Assembly: GCA_937926265.1 (NCBI GenBank)
Contig: CALAZS010000130.1
Location: forward strand, 2,796 to 66,795
Source: an uncultured Gammaproteobacteria bacterium
Lineage (GTDB): Bacteria; Pseudomonadota; Gammaproteobacteria; Chromatiales; Chromatiaceae
Direction of reading: 5' to 3'
DNA: 64,000 nt
The notes under the pieces were generated by a model that worked only from the letters and a program-made list of their open reading frames with translations, had not been told where the DNA came from and did not search any database. This document shows positions 1 through 11,608 of the stretch, piece after piece; the first letter of the stretch is position 1; each line of letters begins with the position of its first letter. The position numbers and the translations under genes are program-made.

Positions 1-851
1 AACAGCGTCTGACCTTCCGAATTACCAAAAAATTCAAGTTGCGCTTTTACTGGCACACCGAATGTAAAACCACTGGTATCAAAGCCCGGCTCAAATTCAG
101 GCATTGGACGCGCATACTCATCACCAGCATCAAATGCTGCGGCAACATTAAAAACCTTGCTTGCATCGTCAATGCAGACCGTAAAAATTGACACACAGTC
201 GAGTGAACGACATGCCGGCACTACACCCGAATTACTCAGCAAACCACGTGAGGGTTTTAAACCTACCAGGTTATTGAAAGCAGCAGGTACTCTGCCAGAA
301 CCCGCGGTATCAGTACCCAGTGAAAAACTTACCTGGCCCAGGGCAACAGCAATGGCCGAACCTGAACTGGAACCACCTGAAATATAATCGGCATTGATAC
401 TGTTTTTACCCGGACCGTATGGTGATCTGGTGCCCACCAGCCCAGTCGCAAACTGATCCAGATTGGTCTTTCCAATCGGGATTGCTCCTGCCTGTATCAA
501 ACAAGCAACCACATAGGCATGACTGTCAGGCTGGTATGCATAGTCCGGGCAGGCCGCTGTGGTTGGCAGATCAGCAAGATCAATGTTGTCTTTTATAGCA
601 AATGGTATTCCATATAAGGGTTTTGACTGATCATCAAAATCACCTAAATCATCAAGATAGCAATCCAGTTGTTCAGGTGACAGGCGACTGATCCAGGCAT
701 TATGGTCAGGCTGTTCATCAATACGCTGCTGAACCAGTTCAATCACGTCTTTGGGTGTAAACTGTTCATCTCTATAGCCGTTGTGAAGCGTATTGATATC
801 CAGGCTGATATTTTTACTGATGTTATTATTCATTTTAGTATGCGTCGTCAT
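1..851 (-). CDS. Allophanate hydrolase (amidase-signature enzyme), N-terminal ~283 codons; 3' end lies beyond window start
   Basis: Absent from the ORF track because it runs off the edge. Reverse translation from ATG at 849-851 gives MTTHTKMNNNISKN...LYGIPFAIKDNIDL...GGSSSGSAIAVALG...GTDTAGSGRVPAAFNN (amidase Gly/Ser-rich signature). Starts 21 nt after the carboxylase stop. Confidence 0.85.
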   Translation of the reverse strand, partial: MTTHTKMNNNISKNISLDINTLHNGYRDEQFTPKDVIELVQQRIDEQPDHNAWISRLSPEQLDCYLDDLGDFDDQSKPLYGIPFAIKDNIDLADLPTTAACPDYAYQPDSHAYVVACLIQAGAIPIGKTNLDQFATGLVGTRSPYGPGKNSINADYISGGSSSGSAIAVALGQVSFSLGTDTAGSGRVPAAFNNLVGLKPSRGLLSNSGVVPACRSLDCVSIFTVCIDDASKVFNVAAAFDAGDEYARPMPEFEPGFDTSGFTFGVPVKAQLEFFGNSEGQTL

Positions 852-872: not shown

Positions 873-3800
873 TTATGACTGTTCAAGTCTTAAAACAATC
901 AAAGCCTGACCAGCTGATATGGAAGCTCCCTGCTGACACAAAATTTCTTCCACGACCCCTATCTCATCTGACTCAATTGGAATTTCCATTTTCATTGCTT
1001 CCAGCACCAGCAGTTCCTGGCCAGGCTCAACCCTCTCACCGGGCTTAACCATTAGCTTCCAGACACTGCCTGTTACCGGTGATGCAATGGCAATGCAGCC
1101 AGCAGGAATTTCAAATGGCGCATCACTGCTGGCTACTTCATCCGGTATTTCCTGATCAAAAGAAGCCTGCCCGGTTTCTTCCCAACGTTGTCTTTCGGCT
1201 TCAAAGGCTGATTGTTGAGTTGACTTAAACGCTTCAATTGACGCTGCATTGTCAGCTAAAAATGCCAGGTACTCTTTTAACTTCAGCGTTGTATTTTCTA
1301 TCTTCAGGCTTGCACGGCCCAGAGGGAAATCGCGTCGCCATTGCTGCAGCTCCTCCCGGGAAACTTCGTAAAAATGTATCTGGTCAAAAAAGCGCAACAA
1401 CCATTGACGTCCATCAATAAAGTCTGCGGTTTGCCGGTAGCGATTCCACATCTGTATTGTACGACCAACAAACTGGTAACCTCCCGGCCCCTCCATTCCA
1501 TAGACACACATATAGGCACCACCGATGCCCACGGCGTTCTCAGGTGTCCAGGTTCGTGCAGGGTTATATTTTGTGGTCACCAGGCGATGACGCGGATCTA
1601 CCGGTGTAGCAACCGGCGCTCCAAGATATACATCACCAAGCCCCATAACAAGGTAACTTGCGTTAAAAACAATTTGCTTTACATCCTCAATTGATTCGAG
1701 ACCGTTGATTCTTCGAATAAACTCGATATTACTCGGGCACCAGGGCGCATCCGGCCGGACTGACTGCATATACTTTTCGATTGCCAGCCTGGTTGATGGG
1801 TCGTCCCATGACAATGGTAAATGGACAATACGGCTGGGCACCTCCATATCAGCAATAGCTGGTAATTCACTTTCAGCCTGCAGCAGCAAATCAAGTAATT
1901 GCATCTGACTGATTTGCTGATTATCAAAGTGCACCTGTAAAGAACGAATACCCGGAGTCAGGTCAATCAGGCCCTTAAGCTGCTTGGCATTAATCCATTG
2001 CATCAGGGCATGTACTCGGAATCTAAGATTTAAGTCCAGAACCTGTGGTCCATATTCTATTAAAAGATTTTCATCGCCTGACTGACGATAACAGACATCT
2101 ATTTGCTGTCCGCTTTTACCTGCTGTTTTTCTAAGTAATACAGGATCGGCTGTTTCGCCCGGCACCAGGCCGTTTATGTCAGGTAATTTATCTGTTTTGA
2201 ATTCATTAATTATTGCCTGCTGATGACATGCAAGACTGGCAGCCTCATCAACTGAAACACAATGAAAACGGATTTTATCTCCCGGCTTGAGCTGTCCCAT
2301 TTTCCAAAGATCAGCCTGAATTATCGTTGCCGGACAGACAAACCCTCCCAGGCTTGGGCCATCAGGTCCAAGAATGATTGGCATATCACCGGTAAAATCA
2401 ATGGCACCGATGGCATAGGCATTATCATGAATATTTGATGGATGCAGTCCTGCCTCCCCGCCATCCTCGCGAGCCCAGGCTGGTTTAGGTCCAATTAACC
2501 GAACACCGGTGCGGCTGGAATTATAGTGAACTTCATAATCTGTCGAGAACAGTGTTTTTATATCTTCCTCTGTAAAAAAATCAGGTGCGCCATGCGGGCC
2601 ATACATGACATTGATATCCCAGTGATCGGGATAACTTGGTATTAAGGTCTGAGGGAGTTTTTCATAATCTATGGCACCTTTATTCTGTTTATATAGCCTT
2701 AAAACATCGCCAACCCTTAATGCCCGGCCCGCGTGACCGCCAAACTTGCCCAGCGTAAATGTAGTTCGCGAACCCATATACTGTGGAACATCAAATCCAT
2801 CTTTAACCGCCAGGTAGGTTCGATTACCCTGACCTTCAATGGTCCGTAACTTTAAAATGCTGCCTGCTTTTACAGGTATAGCTTGCCAGTATTCAACTTC
2901 TTTGCCATCAAGTAATGCTTTCATCTTTGCGCCGGTAAGCGCAATGACAGTATCGGCATTAAATTGCAGGCTGGGGCCGGTTACTGTCATCTCAAGACCA
3001 GCAGCGTCATCATTGTTGCCGAGGATTCGATTGGCCAGACGAAATGCATATGTGTCCATCGGGCCGGATGGTGGCACACCAATATCCCAGTAACCAATAC
3101 GCCCGGGATAATCGACAATAAAGCTCTGAGTGCCCGGCGAAACAACGTCAATAGTTAACGGTGCGAAGTTAAATTTATCCAGGTACCTGGTAAAATGACG
3201 GGCTTTAACAAATACCTCATCCTGGATTATGCTGCCAAGGTACTCAAGGTTTGTTTCGATCCCGTATAAATGTGTGGCTTTTATGGCGTTGAAAAGCTTC
3301 CCCCGAACACTATCGCGATTATTGTCATGAGCAATCAGCTTGGCAATCATCGGATCATAAAAAGCAGGTACCTCACTCCCTTGTTCCACCCATGTATCTA
3401 CACGGACATTGTCTGGAAAACAAACATCGGAAAGCAAGCCTGGGCAAGGCTGAAATTTTTTGCCCGGATCCTCGGCATATATTCGGACCTGCATTGCGTG
3501 ACCATTTGGCTGGTGCTTATAATCAGCAAGAGAGGCATTATCATCGGCAGCAGTCCGAATCATCCACTCAACCAGGTCAACACCGGTAACCATCTCGGTA
3601 ACACCGTGCTCTACCTGTAACCGCGTATTAACCTCAAGAAAATAAAACTCATTGCTTAAAGAGTCATAAACATACTCCACCGTACCGGCTGAGCGATAGT
3701 TTACTGCCTTACCCAGATTAACGGCCGCCGTCATCAGGCGCTGACGTAATTCTTCTGATATGTCAGGTGCCGGGGTTTCTTCTATGACTTTCTGGTTTCG

Positions 3801-4496
3801 CCGCTGTACTGAACAGTCACGCTCCCCAAGCGCCACAACATGACCCTTACCATCACCGAATATCTGGACTTCAATGTGCCTTGCTTTTTCAACATACTTT
3901 TCCAGAAAGATACCGCCCTGGCTAAAATTACTTCGCGCAAGGCGTTCCACTGAATGAAACGCATCTGAAAGCTCTTGTTCTGACCAGCATAGTTGCATAC
4001 CTATACCACCGCCACCAGCAGTGCTTTTCAGCATTACAGGATAACCAATGGCCAAAGCTTCTCGCCTGGCATGATCTAAATCATCAAGCAACCCGGTACC
4101 GGGTAATAAAGGTACATTGTTATCTTTAGCTAATGACCTGGCAGTATGCTTCAGACCAAAGTCTCGCATTTGCCTGGGTGTGGGACCTATGAAAGCTATG
4201 TTGTGCTGTTCGCAGGTTTCCGCAAACTCTGCGTTCTCACTTAAGAACCCATAACCGGGATGAACAGCCTCTGCTCCAAAGTCCTTAGCTACCTGCAATA
4301 TTTTTTGAGTATCAAGATAACTTTCGGAAGCGGGACCTGGGCCAATACATACAGCCTCATCTGCTTCAGAAACATGCAGCGAGGCCTCGTCGGCCTCTGA
4401 ATAAACAGCCAGGGACTTAATCCCCATCGACTTCAAGGTTCGAATTATGCGGCAGGCAATTGTACCGCGGTTGGCAATTAATACTTTTTTAAACAT
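873..4496 (-). CDS. Urea/guanidine carboxylase (biotin carboxylase + KipI/KipA-type carboxyltransferase + biotinyl domain)
   Basis: 1207-aa ORF. N-terminal ATP-grasp biotin carboxylase ([27 protein letters not shown]), large central carboxyltransferase region, C-terminal biotinylation motif LEAMKME. The guanidine-II riboswitch candidate directly upstream favours guanidine as substrate. Confidence 0.9.
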
Positions 4497-4541: not shown

Positions 4542-4588
4542 GGCAGGTCGTCCTACCGTTTTACCACATCGTCGGGTCGTCCCGGCGA
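4542..4588 (-). promoter_or_regulatory. Guanidine-II (mini-ykkC) riboswitch candidate
   Basis: Minus-strand RNA has two hairpins. P1 is UCG-C-CGGG[ACGA]CCCG-A-CGA (4588..4569) and P2 is GGUAGG[ACGA]CCUGCC (4557..4542). Both are GC-rich stems capped by ACGR tetraloops closed by GG/CC, with an 11-nt linker. The element lies 23 nt after the DUF1989 stop and 45 nt before the carboxylase ATG. Confidence 0.75.
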
Positions 4589-4610: not shown

Positions 4611-5249
4611 TCAGTCCCAGATCAGTACTTCAACAGGTGTAGGGTTATAGGCATTACAGGGATTGTTCAATTGCGGGCAATTGGATATTAAAACGATAAC
4701 ATTCATTGCAGCCTTTAACTCAACATATTTACCGGGTGACGAAATACCATCTTCAAATGTCAAACCACCATCCGGTGTGACTGGCACATTCATAAAAAAA
4801 TTAATATTGTGGGTAATATCTCTTTTGCTCATTCCATACTGTTCATTTTCGGCTATAGCCAGCATCCAGCTATCCCGACAGGCATGCATACACTTTTTAT
4901 CCAATGCATAGCGAACCGTATTACTTTCCGTGGCACATGCCCCACCTATGGTATCGTGTCTCCCACAAGTATCCGCGACAATCTCCAACATAAGATTCAT
5001 TTCATTAGAGAGCAGTTTAGTGCCAGTAGTCAGGTAAACATTACCCTGTTCCCTTATGGTATCGATGGCACTGTAGCGCTCACCCGGATCGTCGGCGTTA
5101 TAAAACAAAGTATCAGCAGCCTGGTTACCTTCAAGATCCAGAATCCTCACCGTCTGACCTGCCTTGACAACCTGCATATAGTAATCGCCGGCAAGCACCA
5201 TCTTTCTATCGCAGGCATCTTCAGGTTTAAGGGTACTCTCTTTAATCAT
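4611..5249 (-). CDS. DUF1989 / urea-carboxylase-associated protein (carboxyguanidine deiminase CgdAB-like subunit)
   Basis: 212-aa ORF, paralogous to the upstream 248-aa ORF with an 8-nt overlap. It occupies the conserved position next to the carboxylase. Confidence 0.75.
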
Positions 5250-5988
5250 GGCAACATCCCTGCCCTAAATGGAAAATTTCATTGTTTTTAAAGCCCCGTT
5301 GATTTTCTGGTCTGAAATTCATACAGAAGTCATCGGGTTGAATTTCAGCTGCCTGGCGTATTTCATATTTAACAGGTTTTTGCGGATATTCAGTGGCCGG
5401 GTTTAAAGGATGCGGACAGGTGTGGAATAACACCAGCGTGTCCATTTCAAAACGCAGCTCTATGTAGTCCCCGGCTTTACTGTTGTTTTCGATATATTTC
5501 AAATTACCCTGTTCATCAACCGTGACGCCGCTGAAAAGATTAAGATTTGAAGCCATGTCTTTACGTCCTAGTCCATGCTTGGCCAATTCAACCAGGAAAC
5601 TGTTGTAACCATTCTGGTTCCAGTCGTTATGATAATCCTGGTAGGTTTTTTCACCCCATTTTTCTTTTACTGTTTTGCTGGTGGTATTACCACAAACGGT
5701 TTCATGCCAACCGACAGTATCTTCAACAATCGAGCAAAATACCCTGCCCATATCTGAATAAAGACAATTCCCCTTGGTTAGCTTGAAGGTATGCTGGCAT
5801 TTCAGGGTATCTGGTGCGTTGTACTTTTCCAGTAAGTTGGTCGGGTTATAGAACAACATACCAACGTTGGCTCCACCTGTTTCATCAATCAGTCTTAAGC
5901 AGGTTCCCTTGCGCATAAGCAAAGACCAGTGGCAACCACCAGCCAGCTGATCTTCATATAAAACTGTTCCGGGCTCTATTGTTTTCAT
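5242..5988 (-). CDS. DUF1989 / urea-carboxylase-associated protein (carboxyguanidine deiminase CgdAB-like subunit)
   Basis: 248-aa ORF, the larger paralog of the pair that typically precedes urea/guanidine carboxylase genes. Confidence 0.75.
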
Positions 5989-6000
5989 ATTTACCCCTTT

Positions 6001-6480
6001 CTATAGCCTTTCTTTATCTTGGATTTCAGGCAGAGGATGTAACGGCGGAATGATAGCTGCTGACATTAGCAACTTACCACTGATAACACCCCTGCAGGTT
6101 TTCATTTTATTAGCGATTAATTTTAATTTTTCTCCCGGCCCCTGAACCAGAATCACCGCCATGGTCTTTTTTTGTTCCAGGTTAACATTCAATACACTAA
6201 TGACTTCATCTATAAATTCATGCATTAAATCTGACAACTTTCTCTGTAACCCTGGTACAGAATAGTCATATATCAGGTTAATTGTACCGGCCATAATTTC
6301 TTCACCTACATCCTGCCTATGTTCAACCAGTTGCTGATGAATCATGTCCGCCATTGCCCGGGAGCGGCTTTCATAACCCTTTTCATCAACCATCTGATCA
6401 AACTCAAGCGCCAGATTCTCGGGTAACGACACACTGATACGACTGACTCTGCGCTGGCTTTTCGGGTTGACCTGCTTCAT
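6001..6480 (-). CDS. NikR-fold (ribbon-helix-helix + ACT-like) transcriptional regulator lacking the canonical Ni ligands
   Basis: 159-aa ORF. The N-terminal RHH (RISVSLPENLALEFDQMVDEKGYESRSRAMADMI) matches the NikR/CopG pattern. The C-terminal domain aligns by eye to the NikR metal-binding domain, but HxH...C is replaced by NVN...T. Confidence 0.65.
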   Translation of the reverse strand: MKQVNPKSQRRVSRISVSLPENLALEFDQMVDEKGYESRSRAMADMIHQQLVEHRQDVGEEIMAGTINLIYDYSVPGLQRKLSDLMHEFIDEVISVLNVNLEQKKTMAVILVQGPGEKLKLIANKMKTCRGVISGKLLMSAAIIPPLHPLPEIQDKERL

Positions 6481-6496
6481 ACCTGCTTCATATATG

Positions 6497-7858
6497 TTAA
6501 AACAAGTGACTGTAACGATCTATTTCCCAGCTTGATATCGTCTGGTGATACTCATTCCATTCCTGGCGTTTATAGCGAATAAACTCATCCCTGAGTGGTT
6601 TGCCAAGCACTTCTGTAACAAGGGGGTCGGCTTCGAACGCATCCACTGCCTCCAGCAGGTTTTTGGGTAAAAACTCTATGCCCCGCTCGGCCCTTTGTTC
6701 CTCGGTTAGTTCGTAAAGGTTATCTTCCTGTGGATTACCCGGATCAATCGATTCTTTAATACCTTCAAGTCCCGCTGCCAATGCCAGCGTTGCAGCAAGA
6801 TAAGGATTAACAGCGCCATCAGCATTACGTGACTCACAACGCCCACCACCCATCGGTACGCGAATCGAATTTGTTCGGTTATTAGAGCCGAAAGAATTGA
6901 ACACCGGTGCCCAGGTAAAATAAGGCATGTCACCCTGGCGTACCAAGCGCTTGTAACTGTTGACGGTAGGAGCAAAGGCCGCACAGAGTGCCTTGCCATG
7001 CTTGATAATGCCGCCAATGAAGTTATAACCCAGCGGGGTTAATCCTAGTCCTTTTGGGTCTTCAGCAGGATCACAGGCAAAAAGGTTTTTACCACTGTTT
7101 ATGTCATATAACGACATATTGAAATGCGCCCCATTACCCGTCTTATCTGCAAAAGGCTTTGGCATAAATGTCGCGATCAGCCCCTCCTGCTTGGCATATT
7201 CTTTCGCCATGAGACGTAAAAATATATAACGGTCACAACTGGTAACTGCATCGGCATACATGAAATCAAATTCGTATTGCCCATTGGCATCTTCATGGTC
7301 GAACGAGTAAAGGTCCCAGCCCAGGGCATTTATTGTCGAGGCCATTTTATCTAGCCAACCAAACTGATCTAGAAAGCCGCGAGCATCGTAACAGGGCTTG
7401 GTTAACTTATCGTCCGGATTTGGAATACTTAATGAGCCATCTTCATTTTGCTTCAATACAAAAACTTCTGCTTCGATACCCAGGTTAAAACCAAAGCCCA
7501 TATCGGCTGCCTGTGATAAAACATTCTTCAAGGCAACACGGGTATTTAATGCATAAGGCTCGCCTTTAAAGGTATTGTCTGCCGGCATCCAGGCCACTTC
7601 AGGCTGCCATGGCAGCTGGATGATATGGTCAAGGTCGGGTAACGATGCAATCTCATCATCGTTAGGTGCCTGGCCAAGACCATCCAGTGCATAGCCGGTA
7701 TACAATTCAGAACCATGCGCCATATGTTCAAGATGTTCAATTGGTACAACTTTACCCTTTGGTACTCCATGAATATCAACATAGGCACCCAGACAATATT
7801 TGACGCCCAATGAAGTAAGCTTATCCTGAATCTCCTTTATTTCCTGCGAACTTTTCAT
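6497..7858 (-). CDS. Glutamine synthetase-like ATP-dependent ligase (GS family, PuuA/GmaS-like size)
   Basis: 453-aa ORF with GS catalytic-domain blocks ([48 protein letters not shown]). ATGA overlap with the upstream creatininase-like gene. Confidence 0.8.
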
Positions 7859-8637
7859 AATTCACTTTCCATGCTGATTGCTTCGGAATAACCAAAGGGT
7901 AATGGCGGGATTTCCTGCATACCTTTTTTGACAGTTTCACTTAAATCTTCAACCATCCATTCAAACAACTGTTGACCTTTATCAGCACTTGCAAGACTTG
8001 GTTTACCTGTTACACCATTTTTGCTGGTTCGGTTTACAGGATGGGAAAATACACAATTTTCAGTTCGGTCTTCATCATCACAATCCTGTATACGATCGGA
8101 ACGGACCATCTTAGGACTCAAGGCCATCATCAACGAGGTTTCAGCGTCATTGGCATGCCAGTCATCAGCATCATGAAAGTGGGCTTGTTTTACACGTTCA
8201 CTGATTGAGGCTGAATTGATCAGGGCGATCATGAAATCATCGTATTCGGCACGCAACATCTCTAAAGCACAACGCAGTGGCGCGAAGTTGGTGACATGCG
8301 TATTAATAATAAACAGACGCTTAAAACCAGATGCATAGACCCAATCGCCAATCTGTTTAACGATATCGATCAGAGTCTTTGGTTGTAAAGCAATCGTTCC
8401 TGGCCAGCGTTTCGAATGACCTATTGAGCAGCCAAAAGATTGAGTTGGCAATAAAGCCGCACCGGTTTTTTCAGCAACAGCTTCACACAAGTGCGATGCA
8501 ATATCGGCATCCATACCGCAACCCATATGTGGACCATGTTGTTCAGTTGCACCCACTGGAAGGATGGCTGTGTCCATACCGTTTGAAATCAATTCACCAA
8601 CCTCTTCCCAGGTCATGGTGTGCCATTTGTTCAGCAT
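7855..8637 (-). CDS. Creatininase-family amidohydrolase
   Basis: 260-aa ORF with family motifs [26 protein letters not shown] and HANDAETS. Its start codon abuts the TAG stop of the ABC ATPase gene. Confidence 0.8.
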
Positions 8638-9561
8638 CTAGAAAACGCTCTCTACCTCATTATCAACGCCCACCATTCGTACCATATTGAGATGATCACT
8701 GTTGACACCCTCCTCTTCTTCAGAAGGTGGATGAATCAATTCTTCAAGGCGTTTTTTGGTGGCTAGAAACTCAGCGGACAGAAGCTGCTCTGGAGATCTT
8801 GGCTGCGGCACGGGCACTTCAATAATCTCATTGACTTCTCCTGGATGGGCTTTTAATACCAGGATACGATCCGCCAGATAAATGGCTTCATCCAAATCAT
8901 GCGTAATAAAGAAAATCGTGATATCAATGTTTTGCCAGATTTCCATGAGATACTGCTGCATCTTGGCACGGGTTTGCGCATCCAGTGCGCCGTAAGGCTC
9001 ATCCATCAATAAGATACGCGGCTGATTGGCCAAAGCCCTGGCTATAGCGACACGTTGTTTCATACCACCCGACAACTCATGTGGGTAGCTATCTTCAAAT
9101 TTACCCAAGCCAACCAGGTCGATCCATTGACGCGCATCTTCCTCTGCCAGCACTTTACTGTGGCCTGATTGTTCTAAACCAAACATGACGTTTCGCTTAA
9201 CGGTCAGCCACGGAAACAAAGTATAACCCTGAAACACCATGCCACGATCAGGGCCAGGACCCTGTACCGGTTTGCCATCAAGTATAATTTCACCGGAAGT
9301 CGGCGTTTCCAAGCCAGCTAGAATCCGAATCAGTGTAGACTTACCACATCCGGAAGGGCCGATCACACAAACGAATTCTCGCTTGTGTACGGTAAAGTTT
9401 ATGTCTTTTAAAGCAGTGACCTTAGCCCCGGTTGGGGTTTCAAACTGCTTGTAAAGATTTTTAATCTCCAATGCTATTGGGCGTTGTTTTATCCGGGCAA
9501 AGCGATCTTTAACGTCTTCGTCTTGATCAAGGTAGCTGGGCAAATCGACTAAATGTTCCAT
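8638..9561 (-). CDS. ABC transporter ATP-binding protein (NitT/TauT family)
   Basis: 307-aa ORF with Walker [10 protein letters not shown], signature LSGGMKQR and Walker B LLMDEP. Confidence 0.9.
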
Positions 9562-9573
9562 AACAATATGTCC

Positions 9574-10539
9574 TTAAGCTTTTGCTTTTCTTTGCCATGG
9601 GAACAAGCGTTTACCCATCTGCGCAAGTATGAGATCGGTCGCCAATCCAATAATGCCAATAATCATGATCGCGGCAAAAACATTATCAAAGTTTTTATAG
9701 CGTGCCTGCTGAGTGATAAACCAGGTAATTCCTGAGCTGGTACCAATCAATTCGGCGACGATCAGATAGGTCCAGGCCCAGCCAAGCAAAATTCGCATAT
9801 CACGATAAAGATCGGGCAATACGCCTGGCACAACTACTCTGAATAACAAGGCTTTATTTTTTGCACCCAGTGTTTGAGCGGCTTCAAGTAATGATGGATC
9901 AAGCTTGCGCGTGGTATTGGAGATGACCAATACCTGTTGGAAAAAAGTACCAATGAAAATAATGGCGATTTTGGGGGCATGATGAATACCCAAAATTGCT
10001 ACTGCCAGCGCACCAAAAGCCGGTGCTGGCAGGTAACGAAAGAATTCAATAAACGGTTCAAACAACCGTGAGAAAAAATCATAGGTGCCAGCCAGAATCC
10101 CTAACGGCACACCAATTAATGAGGAAAGGAAAAATCCCCAGAAAATAACCTGAATACTGTCCCAAAGGCTTTCATGCAGCCATTTTTCAGTTCGTCTCTT
10201 TGGTGGTGTAGTAAAGGCGGTATAAAAAGCTTCAGCCACCTCATGTGGCGCAGGCAGATAGATAGGGTTTGCTGGATCGCCCTGGGGAAGCGTCTTACTG
10301 GCTTCTTTCGCCTTTAAAGACTCTTCATCAAACAGCTCACGATCTACAAGCATTCCTTCTTTGAAATAGGAAACTGCACCGGGTTCGGTTATTTCTACTT
10401 TAGGGTGCCACAACCAGGGCACATAACTGACCAGGCACCAGAGCAGAAGAGGTAATGCAAAGCTCATTACAGTAATCATGACACGAGACCTTGGCCTCAG
10501 TTCTTTTCGAACTGCAAACAGTTGTTTGAATGAACTCAT
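9574..10539 (-). CDS. ABC transporter permease (NitT/TauT family)
   Basis: 321-aa polytopic ORF with an EAA-type loop (LEAAQTLGAKNKALLFRVVVPGVLP). Confidence 0.85.
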   Translation of the reverse strand: MSSFKQLFAVRKELRPRSRVMITVMSFALPLLLWCLVSYVPWLWHPKVEITEPGAVSYFKEGMLVDRELFDEESLKAKEASKTLPQGDPANPIYLPAPHEVAEAFYTAFTTPPKRRTEKWLHESLWDSIQVIFWGFFLSSLIGVPLGILAGTYDFFSRLFEPFIEFFRYLPAPAFGALAVAILGIHHAPKIAIIFIGTFFQQVLVISNTTRKLDPSLLEAAQTLGAKNKALLFRVVVPGVLPDLYRDMRILLGWAWTYLIVAELIGTSSGITWFITQQARYKNFDNVFAAIMIIGIIGLATDLILAQMGKRLFPWQRKAKA

Positions 10540-10567: not shown

Positions 10568-11545
10568 TTAAAGTTCGGCCATCAATGACATATCGATGTA
10601 AGCATCAACGTCTTCAGGAGATTCATATACTTTGTTGGCTACATTGAAGTCATCTGAGATTTTTGAAGAACCGTAGATTGAGGTGAAACCCTCTGCCTTA
10701 GGTGCAAACTTCATGGCCTCTTCAAGAGTCATGATATTGGTTCCGCTAATCAGTTTTTTGTATTCAGCAGGCTCCAAACCGACGCGAGCCGCCATAATTT
10801 CAACTGCATCAGCGTTAGTGGCCGGGTCTTTAAGGTAAGCAACAGACTTGTACCAGACTTTTAAAACTTTCTTCCAGTCATCACGTCTAGCCGCGAGGCT
10901 TTCAGGAGAAACAGCTAAAACGTCGTAGATCAAACCCGGTTCATCTTTACTGGTGTAGATCGCTTTTGAACCAGGAACGAGTGATAACGCCTGACCAGAG
11001 CTTGGCTGCCATGCAACAACCGCATCCACTTCACCAGAAGCCAAAACCTGAGGTGTTTCATTAGTCGGTACATTGACCAGTTCAACATCAGCCTCTGTAA
11101 GACCAGCACCTTCCAAGGCATTCAACAGCAGCAAATGACCTACAAAGCCAATTTCAACACCAATTTTCTTTCCTTTCAGGTCTTTAACTGAATCGATACC
11201 CGGCAGGGCAACGACCATGTCATTGCCATTACTGTAATCGTTAATCAGGATCATGACGCTTTTCGCACCGGTTGCACCGGTAACCAGGGCGTCACCATTG
11301 GTCATGCTGACCGCATCAAGTTTGCCTGCCGCATAAGCATCCATGGAAGCCACATAGTCAAACCACTCAAAAACAACATCTACACCTTCTTCTTTGAACC
11401 ATTGTTTTTCAATGGCAACTTCCCATGCAACCCACCCGGGCCAATCACTGTAGCCAATCTTCAATGGTTCGGCGGCTTTCGCAGTGGTACTAATGGCTAT
11501 TGCCACTAACAAGGTAGATATAATGCGCTTCATAAAACTTTTCAT
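10568..11545 (-). CDS. ABC transporter periplasmic substrate-binding protein (NMT1/TauA-like)
   Basis: Signal peptide [25 protein letters not shown] prefer the ATG at 11545, 5 nt after a GAGGAG Shine-Dalgarno, over the GTG at 11551 used in the ORF track. Confidence 0.8.
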
Positions 11546-11592
11546 GGACACTCCTCAGTATTACGATTTGATAAAAAAGTATTACCAGGAAT

Positions 11593-11608
11593 CGCAATTA
11601 CCAGGCCA
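11593..11608 (-). promoter_or_regulatory. Sigma54 (-24/-12) promoter candidate for the transporter-to-allophanate-hydrolase operon
   Basis: Minus strand reads TGGCCTGGTAATTGCG, which is TGGC-N7-TTGC with exact consensus spacing, about 50 nt upstream of the SBP start codon. Confidence 0.6.

Follow-up and report, generated by a model that had tools for sequence, protein, structure and literature searches.

A 64,000-nucleotide stretch of contig CALAZS010000130.1 from an uncultured gammaproteobacterium of the Chromatiaceae (assembly GCA_937926265.1; the whole stretch is called the window below) carries two adjoining genes in the middle of a tightly packed, ten-gene operon on the minus strand. One encodes a creatininase-fold binuclear metallohydrolase of 260 residues (Crn-like; positions 7855..8637, minus strand; PF02633 Creatininase, 243 bits), and the other a glutamate ligase of the glutamine synthetase (GS) fold with 453 residues that belongs to the GmaS-like superclade (GS3; 6497..7858, minus strand; PF00120 Gln-synt_C, 299 bits). 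The view that this pair is a guanidine-regulated ligase/hydrolase module without a described reaction, co-expressed with a guanidine importer alongside the guanidine carboxylase pathway, is well supported, and its presence suggests that guanidine metabolism includes a step or route not yet described. A preliminary description of the same DNA had suggested a step outside the known guanidine pathway; that suggestion proved well founded, because the pair travels with the carboxylase genes, stands under guanidine-I control in distant relatives, consists of neither a bona fide glutamine synthetase nor a standard creatininase, and is described in no paper in the literature searched.

In an even sampling of 401 genomes of the class, the hydrolase was found in 13 genomes (13 genera, the window's own genome included) and CgdB, a subunit of carboxyguanidine deiminase, in 31; all 13 hydrolase carriers lie within those 31 (Fisher P = 2e-16). 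The ligase is present in all 12 other carrier genomes and adjoins the hydrolase in 10 of them. Both genes are broken by frameshifts in one of these ten (G176); the ligase of G121 lies on a contig separate from the hydrolase, and that of G091 is split across two contigs. A phylum-level sample added two more carriers, from other classes, in both of which the pair lies inside a locus of cgdAB, carboxylase and allophanate hydrolase genes. CgdB is encoded by 15 of the 15 carrier genomes sampled, the window's own among them, and no sampled genome has the pair without the carboxylase pathway. The same gene order occurs in Halothiobacillus diazotrophicus (L001), Aurantivibrio (L003) and many metagenome-assembled Gammaproteobacteria, and the two genes are still adjacent in a Hyphomicrobium locus (L015) where the order of hydrolase and ligase is swapped. 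One locus (L002) holds the importer, the pair and a NikR-like gene with no cgd genes nearby, and in G176 (locus L018) cgdB lies on another contig. The protein collection contains hundreds of near relatives, most of which come from environmental assemblies and from sulfur-oxidising, marine and sediment Gammaproteobacteria.

The most telling link to guanidine comes from two divergent versions of the pair (L021 and L022; identity 42-45% for the hydrolase and 53-55% for the ligase), both of which lie behind guanidine-I riboswitches. L021 has two of these: one (87.1 bits) stands before a unit of genes for the importer substrate-binding protein (SBP), permease and ATPase, the hydrolase and the ligase, and the other (81.3 bits) before cgdAB, the carboxylase gene and the allophanate hydrolase gene. 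In L022 a guanidine-I riboswitch (93.6 bits) stands directly before the same five-gene unit, which is divergent from cgdAB-(guanidine-II)-carboxylase. The pair is kept with either type of SBP, canonical in L022 and L029 and SsuA-like in the window, and is therefore not tied to one transporter type.

The preliminary description took an ATGA overlap of the two open reading frames as a sign of stoichiometric co-expression. The overlap itself is in the sequence: plus-strand positions 7855-7858 read tcat, which is ATGA on the minus strand, so that the TGA stop of the hydrolase gene overlaps the ATG of the ligase gene, and just upstream the TAG stop of the ATPase gene (8640-8638) directly abuts the ATG of the hydrolase gene (8637-8635). 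At the 22 other loci with both genes complete, the spacing from hydrolase stop to ligase start ranges from -11 to +40 nucleotides, and the ATGA overlap occurs in none of them. The overlap is lineage-specific and the tight operonic packing is general and conserved, so that any stoichiometric translational coupling would be local at most. Among the operon proteins the ligase has the highest mean identity (77%, the others 56-72%), and the pair appears to be under strong purifying selection, the ligase being the most conserved protein of the operon. Six read-size contigs from a wetland metatranscriptome, 95-100% identical to the operon, map to the ligase gene, the ATPase/hydrolase junction and the start of the carboxylase gene, and one of them crosses the ATPase/hydrolase junction at 8637/8638; they are a weak indication of transcription in nature, to which DNA carry-over could contribute.

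Several loci show additional or damaged copies. In G121, the contig with the hydrolase (C66) does not continue the contig on which the ligase is truncated (C144). Locus L024 on the former contig (G121:C66, 82-2161) encodes a 41%-identical paralog of the hydrolase. After it come a GS3-like gene (49% identical) reduced to its first ~100 residues and then, on the opposite strand, a creatininase-type paralog; the arrangement resembles a second copy of the pair that has decayed. In G176 (L027, which is the same locus as L018; G176:C6:627581-632927), frameshifts divide the ligase gene into four pieces and the hydrolase and ATPase genes into two each, and the cassette lies directly downstream of urease genes that are likewise frameshifted; these frameshifts are probably long-read assembly errors rather than marks of pseudogenes. 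Urease, considered as the alternative urea sink, is encoded in seven of the 15 carrier genomes and is therefore neither required nor excluded.

The amine site of the ligase

Profile and tree placement together with inspection of the ammonium site, which the preliminary description had proposed as checks, put the ligase in neither the GlnA clade nor the canonical GmaS clade. The ATP/glutamate blocks of the GS family that it had listed (28 protein letters) are present in the translation. The best matches of the ligase in the PDB are GmaS structures (9qur, 405 bits; 7cql, 335 bits; EC 6.3.4.12), to which it is 42-44% identical, and true glutamine synthetases score at most 237 bits. Against TIGR00653, the GlnA equivalog, the ligase scores 292 bits (cut-off 429), and against TIGR03105, 'type III glutamate--ammonia ligase', 647 bits (cut-off 470). 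The latter family is not substrate-specific: the PDB entry of 7cql, a GmaS defined by experiment, bears the same name, and a paralog linked to tmm, the trimethylamine monooxygenase gene, scores 517 bits.

Residue roles in GS and GmaS, including the binding and deprotonation of ammonium by Asp50' and the composition of the GmaS pocket, were taken from work on the Rhodovulum GmaS (PMC7948447). The Asp50' position is Thr in the window ligase and in all operon-linked relatives readable there, and Asp in the genome's own GlnA, which is encoded by a normal glnA on contig C30. The position of the flap Glu (Glu327 in Salmonella, Glu304 in B. subtilis) is Trp in the window ligase, as in GmaS, and Glu in the genome's own GlnA. 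These two replacements and the sub-cut-off score against TIGR00653 rule out the ligase as a bona fide glutamine synthetase. With GmaS it shares the GS fold, the catalytic residues Asp177, Glu186 and Arg312, the flap Trp300, the lack of Asp50' and a Lys30' contributed by the neighbouring subunit, and five of the seven methylamine-pocket residues are kept (Tyr147, Asp177, Glu179, Glu186 and Lys30'). It differs from GmaS in the replacement of Gln175 by Ser, Asn188 by Asp and Ala48' by Thr, in a rebuilt loop at residues 43-56, and in its genomic setting, since GmaS is linked to mgsABC/mgd and the operon ligase is not.

The pocket T48'/S175/F176/D188/F189 is common to 11 operon-linked ligases (52-100% identical), the only departures being Leu176 in L029 and a residue 48 that is unreadable in the truncated copy of L015. 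The canonical GmaS pocket is A/Q/(I,N)/N/(Y,W), as found in 9qur, 7cql and two gammaproteobacterial gmaS beside mgsABC-mgd (G194 and G330); there gmaS adjoins mgsA-mgsB-mgsC and sarcosine-oxidase-like dehydrogenase genes, and each of the two genomes holds both this canonical cluster and the operon ligase. In a maximum-likelihood tree (FastTree), the operon ligases form a clade of their own inside a wider Ser175/Asp188 group, which is split from canonical GmaS with a support of 1.0. No N-methylglutamate synthase was found in the window's own genome (99.4% complete), whose sole GXGXG domain lies within a 1552-residue gltB frame. The tree, the pocket and the absent N-methylglutamate pathway rule out the ligase as a GmaS ortholog acting on methylamine.

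The differences from GmaS are concentrated in one part of the protein. The alignment has 410 ungapped columns, and at 154 of them the operon clade is invariant; in only 18 of these 154 is its residue absent from six canonical GmaS. The seven first-shell pocket residues account for two of the 18 (P = 0.03), and residues 43-56, the counterpart of the Asp50' loop by which GS closes its ammonium site, for seven more (P = 3e-7); pocket and loop combined have clade-specific changes at nine of 21 positions (P = 1e-8). Several of the changes bring in acidic side chains (Glu45, Asp53 and Asp188). This focus of divergence on the nucleophile site argues directly, at the level of sequence, for a changed amine substrate, whose identity it does not give.

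These observations bear on the possibility that the ligase is a GlnT/GmaS-type enzyme for nitrogen capture, trapping the ammonia released by CgdAB and allophanate hydrolase or the methylamine released from methylguanidine in the form of glutamine or gamma-glutamylmethylamide, with the hydrolase as an unrelated amidase. The NCBIfam family name of TIGR03105 and the conserved Asp177, Glu186 and Arg312 would fit such a role, GmaS enzymes also take ammonium and several small amines at lower affinity (PMC7948447), and three ammonia are released per guanidine degraded (PMC12186494). We nevertheless consider it unlikely: the Asp50' and flap Glu of the GS ammonium site are gone, a normal glnA is already in the genome, the N-methylglutamate pathway that would receive gamma-glutamylmethylamide is missing from it, a canonical gmaS is retained in G194 and G330 alongside the operon ligase, and the clustering of clade-specific changes at the amine site argues for another nucleophile. 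Nitrogen capture would also leave unexplained why hydrolase and ligase stay adjacent through rearrangements.

Relatives of the ligase occur in other settings. A paralog in L023 (G194:C10, 1569-10324), 48% identical and likewise with Ser175/Asp188 in its pocket, forms the end of a cluster encoding a trimethylamine N-oxide demethylase, a two-component system, trimethylamine monooxygenase and a class-I glutamine amidotransferase; G194 additionally carries the canonical gmaS-mgsABC cluster (L030), so that the L023 ligase is a third type in this genome. Among the long GS-like representatives scanned there was no fusion to a creatininase domain, and one was fused to a GATase1 domain: P0295 (670 residues) joins a class-I amidotransferase domain to a ligase domain. 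Two giant GS-like representatives, P0242 and P0258, have 4424 and 2757 residues with six and three GS-like stretches, respectively.

The hydrolase and substituted guanidines

The metal-ligand blocks that the preliminary description had read in the hydrolase (EQHGPH, NTHVTN and DAETS) are present, and alignment with the creatininase of P. putida (1j2t/3a6h; EC 3.5.2.10), which shares the PF02633 fold, confirms the ligands: E34, H36, D45, H120 and E183 are all matched, as is the catalytic H178. With the exception of L002, all complete operon-linked copies (42-100% identical) have H178 and the five ligands. The Ser78 loop, Tyr121, Glu122, Trp154 and Trp174, which we take to be the residues contacting creatinine and creatine in the P. 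putida structures, have fared differently: the four-residue loop carrying Ser78 is deleted in all operon-linked hydrolases, Tyr121-Glu122 is replaced by Val-Thr (invariant in the clade), and Trp174 is Ala or Gly; the window hydrolase has Val, Thr, Ala and Ala at positions 121, 122, 154 and 174. Its score against TIGR04448, the creatininase equivalog, is 136 bits (cut-off 235), and against TIGR03964, the mycofactocin peptidase MftE, 124 bits (cut-off 172); no mycofactocin gene is among the operon's open reading frames, and no search aimed at neighbouring mycofactocin genes was made. Judged from these residues and scores, it is highly probable that the ligase is of the GmaS type, using ATP and glutamate for gamma-glutamyl ligation at a rebuilt amine site, and that the hydrolase works as a binuclear-metal amidohydrolase and has ceased to bind creatinine.

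The combination of a genuine glutamine synthetase with a genuine creatininase, which the preliminary description had named as the outcome that would overturn its reading, is contradicted by the residues and by the equivalog cut-offs. That two ordinary enzymes of these kinds merely happen to be located in the operon is what the Pfam family names and the generic database annotations of homologs would suggest. This is extremely improbable, as the creatinine-binding residues and the ammonium-site residues are lost, both proteins score below the respective cut-offs, and the association with CgdB is non-random.

Other creatininase-family copies were also observed. The hydrolase of L002 (9195-9974) has Tyr at the metal-bridging position of Asp45 (GMYAD vs GMDAD), which may reflect decay, a variant arising in sequencing or a changed site. 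On the window's own contig, outside the window and 1.0-2.7 kb left of its position 1, a second creatininase-family gene and an EamA/DMT transporter gene (C130:86-1786) are convergent with the allophanate hydrolase gene. This second protein is 28% identical to the operon copy, keeps Ser78, Tyr121, Glu122, Trp154 and Asp155, and is probably a real creatininase; homologs of it occur in L014 and L024, and homologs of the EamA gene adjoin the operon in six other loci (L005, L007, L009, L010, L014 and L019). In L009 (3227-5960) a guanidine-II riboswitch (33.5 bits) precedes genes for an FA_desaturase-family membrane oxygenase, an MBL-fold hydrolase and an EamA transporter, which lie just upstream of the operon of importer, hydrolase and ligase, and in L003 genes for an FA_desaturase and a xylose-isomerase-like TIM barrel lie between the ligase gene and the NikR-like gene. 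These FA_desaturase, MBL, TIM barrel and EamA genes may form a second accessory module for guanidine derivatives.

The intact catalytic apparatus of the hydrolase raises the possibility of a salvage role, in which the importer would also bring in a guanidine of acylated or cyclic form (examples are guanylurea, an acylguanidine and a ring like that of glycocyamidine or creatinine), the hydrolase would free guanidine, and the ligase would glutamylate the amine or ammonia co-product. Creatininase itself hydrolyses a cyclic acylguanidine, and the breaking of acylguanidine C-N bonds is the chemistry of its family. A precedent exists in Vreelandella boliviensis, where the methylguanidine enzymes MgdH/MgdL convert a substituted guanidine to guanidine inside a carboxylase operon controlled by guanidine-I and guanidine-II riboswitches (PMC12508155). 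That operon resembles the one in the window in having an ABC importer, cgdAB, a guanidine-II switch, gca and atzF together with two inserted, co-regulated enzymes; its inserts, a 2-oxoglutarate dioxygenase and a lyase, carry out the demethylation of methylguanidine, whereas those in the window are a glutamate ligase and a metallohydrolase, and the window has a NikR-like gene where no guanidine-I leader was found. Salvage would also fit the gathering of further accessory enzymes at these loci (the FA_desaturase-type oxygenase, MBL hydrolase, TIM barrel and EamA transporter), the presence near the operon of a paralog that retains most of the creatinine-contacting residues, and the constant company of the carboxylase pathway, as a feeder step predicts. 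It offers no compelling role for the ligase, though this is the most conserved protein of the operon; the pair is kept even with a canonical guanidine SBP directly behind a guanidine-I switch; and the sequence names no candidate substrate. We regard salvage as the main alternative to the reaction favoured below, possible but rather doubtful.

A candidate reaction for the pair

An acylguanidine is much less basic than guanidinium and more electrophilic, and the hydrolase, which belongs to a family already acting on an acylguanidine, would descend from an enzyme that hydrolyses a cyclic one. In the reaction that we tentatively favour, the ligase would join the gamma-carboxyl of glutamate to guanidine, or to a very close guanidine-type compound, giving gamma-glutamylguanidine. 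Acylation would lower the basicity of guanidine and open the guanidino carbon to attack, by the same logic as carboxylation by guanidine carboxylase, and the hydrolase would then either attack the adduct at the guanidino carbon, yielding glutamine and urea, or deiminate it to gamma-glutamylurea and ammonia. One guanidine nitrogen would thereby enter glutamine directly, and the urea or ureido remainder could pass to the carboxylase/allophanate hydrolase arm or to urease. The order and chemistry of this scheme, activation followed by hydrolysis as the preliminary description had suggested, are an inference. Our confidence that the ligase gamma-glutamylates guanidine (or a close analogue) and that the hydrolase splits the activated adduct is appreciable and well below even. 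It is rather improbable, if conceivable, that importer, hydrolase and ligase constitute a third route of guanidine assimilation, biotin- and nickel-free, with activation and assimilation sharing one ATP.

Activation of an amine by ATP-dependent glutamylation is known from the Puu (PuuA/PuuD, putrescine), Ipu (IpuC/IpuF, isopropylamine) and Tdn (TdnQ/TdnT, aniline) systems, which, like the operon studied here, pair a GS-like ligase with a hydrolase in one operon. The hydrolases of those systems are gamma-glutamyl amidases of the class-I glutamine-amidotransferase fold, whereas that of the window has the creatininase fold; pairing with GATase1 is seen here only in relatives (L023 and the fusion P0295). 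The window pair further differs in having no oxidising step between ligase and hydrolase.

Several considerations weigh against guanidine glutamylation. Guanidinium, with a pKa of about 13.6, is a poor nucleophile. Attack of the creatininase type on the acyl carbon of gamma-glutamylguanidine would return glutamate and guanidine, a futile cycle, and the proposed attack on the guanidino carbon is a departure from the known chemistry of the creatininase family. A self-sufficient route should often replace the carboxylase pathway, and the presence of CgdB in every carrier genome fits an accessory role at least as well. In G121 the importer genes are followed by the ligase gene with no hydrolase gene between them. 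The same pocket in the tmm-linked paralog of L023 means that the pocket marks a substrate that is not methylamine or ammonia, and does not mark guanidine. Finally, MgdH/MgdL are also under guanidine-I control, and such control is therefore no proof that guanidine is the substrate.

The operon, its regulator and the significance of the pair

The guanidine operon context named in the preliminary description is borne out by the genes around the pair. The CgdA-type and CgdB-type subunits of carboxyguanidine deiminase (DUF1989) are encoded at 5242..5988 (TIGR03425, 329 bits) and 4611..5249 (TIGR03424, 340 bits), followed by the biotin-dependent guanidine/urea carboxylase at 873..4496 (TIGR02712, 1925 bits) and the N-terminal part of an allophanate hydrolase at 3..851, an open reading frame that extends past the window edge and has a full frame of 619 residues on the contig; all are on the minus strand, and the TIGR02712, TIGR03425 and TIGR03424 scores all exceed their cut-offs. 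A guanidine-II (mini-ykkC) riboswitch aptamer lies before the carboxylase gene (4544..4588, minus strand; RF01068, 29.7 bits, E = 0.006). Carboxylase, CgdA/CgdB, allophanate hydrolase and guanidine riboswitch, the components that define a guanidine carboxylase pathway operon, are all found together in a single transcription unit of the window. The aptamer scores slightly under the Rfam gathering score (29.7 vs 32 bits) and surfaced only in an E-value scan, Rfam at gathering thresholds giving no match in the window or in L001-L003; at the equivalent position in L012, L014, L022 and L028 the aptamer is above the gathering score.

Upstream of the pair, also on the minus strand, are the genes for the importer ATPase (8638..9561; PF00005), the permease (9574..10539; PF00528) and an SBP of the NMT1/SsuA type (10568..11551; PF09084/PF13379). 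This SBP scores 151 bits against TIGR03427 (cut-off 334) and 148 bits against SsuA_fam, and is therefore not the canonical carboxylase-associated SBP, which the relatives L022 and L029 use (TIGR03427, 550-574 bits). A putative sigma-54-type promoter-like element, TGGC-N7-TTGC, can be read from the sequence at 11594..11608 (minus strand), ~45 nucleotides upstream of the SBP start, and a guanidine-I riboswitch was not found in the leader before the SBP gene in Rfam scans by gathering threshold or E-value.

Between the ligase gene and cgdA lies the gene of a NikR-fold regulator (6001..6480, minus strand; PF08753 and RHH_1). The protein aligns over its full length with NikR of P. horikoshii (2bj1) and has one of the four high-affinity nickel ligands left, H89, H91 and C97 being replaced by N, N and T. 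The NikR-like gene is absent from L021 and L022, which have guanidine-I riboswitches, and the NikR-like protein may replace the riboswitch as sensor. The pair could on this basis make or destroy a small ligand sensed by the nickel-blind regulator, in keeping with the missing guanidine-I riboswitch in the window leader, the position of the ligase gene before a NikR-fold gene with three of four nickel ligands replaced, and the lack of a guanidine-I match at most loci that bear a NikR-like gene. Such signal processing is very unlikely: L021 and L022 have the pair and guanidine-I riboswitches without the NikR-like gene, so that the function of the pair is independent of that regulator, and a dodecameric ligase under very strong purifying selection would be an unusual signal generator.

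It took the decoding of the guanidine riboswitches for guanidine to be recognised as a metabolite and nitrogen source of bacteria. To our knowledge, two routes of guanidine breakdown are known, one through carboxylase, CgdAB and allophanate hydrolase and the other through a nickel guanidinase. Both folds of the pair and the general idea of glutamylation-dependent catabolism are likewise known, and no paper in the literature searched describes a GmaS-derived ligase combined, under guanidine control, with a hydrolase of the creatininase fold. This full-text search, whose scope excluded the gene-association tables of Nelson 2017 and Schneider 2020, returned no paper on the pair or on gamma-glutamylguanidine. 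New here are the co-occurrence statistic, the coexistence of canonical gmaS and operon ligase in the same genomes, the mapping of the substitutions to the amine site, and the finding of the same pocket in a context other than guanidine. The pair is common, apparently strongly selected and wired to guanidine sensing, and defining its reaction would either give a new means by which enzymes break the very stable guanidinium group or tell which natural guanidine derivatives nourish these organisms. The automatic labels 'glutamine synthetase' and 'creatinine amidohydrolase', widely attached to such proteins, would be corrected at the same time.

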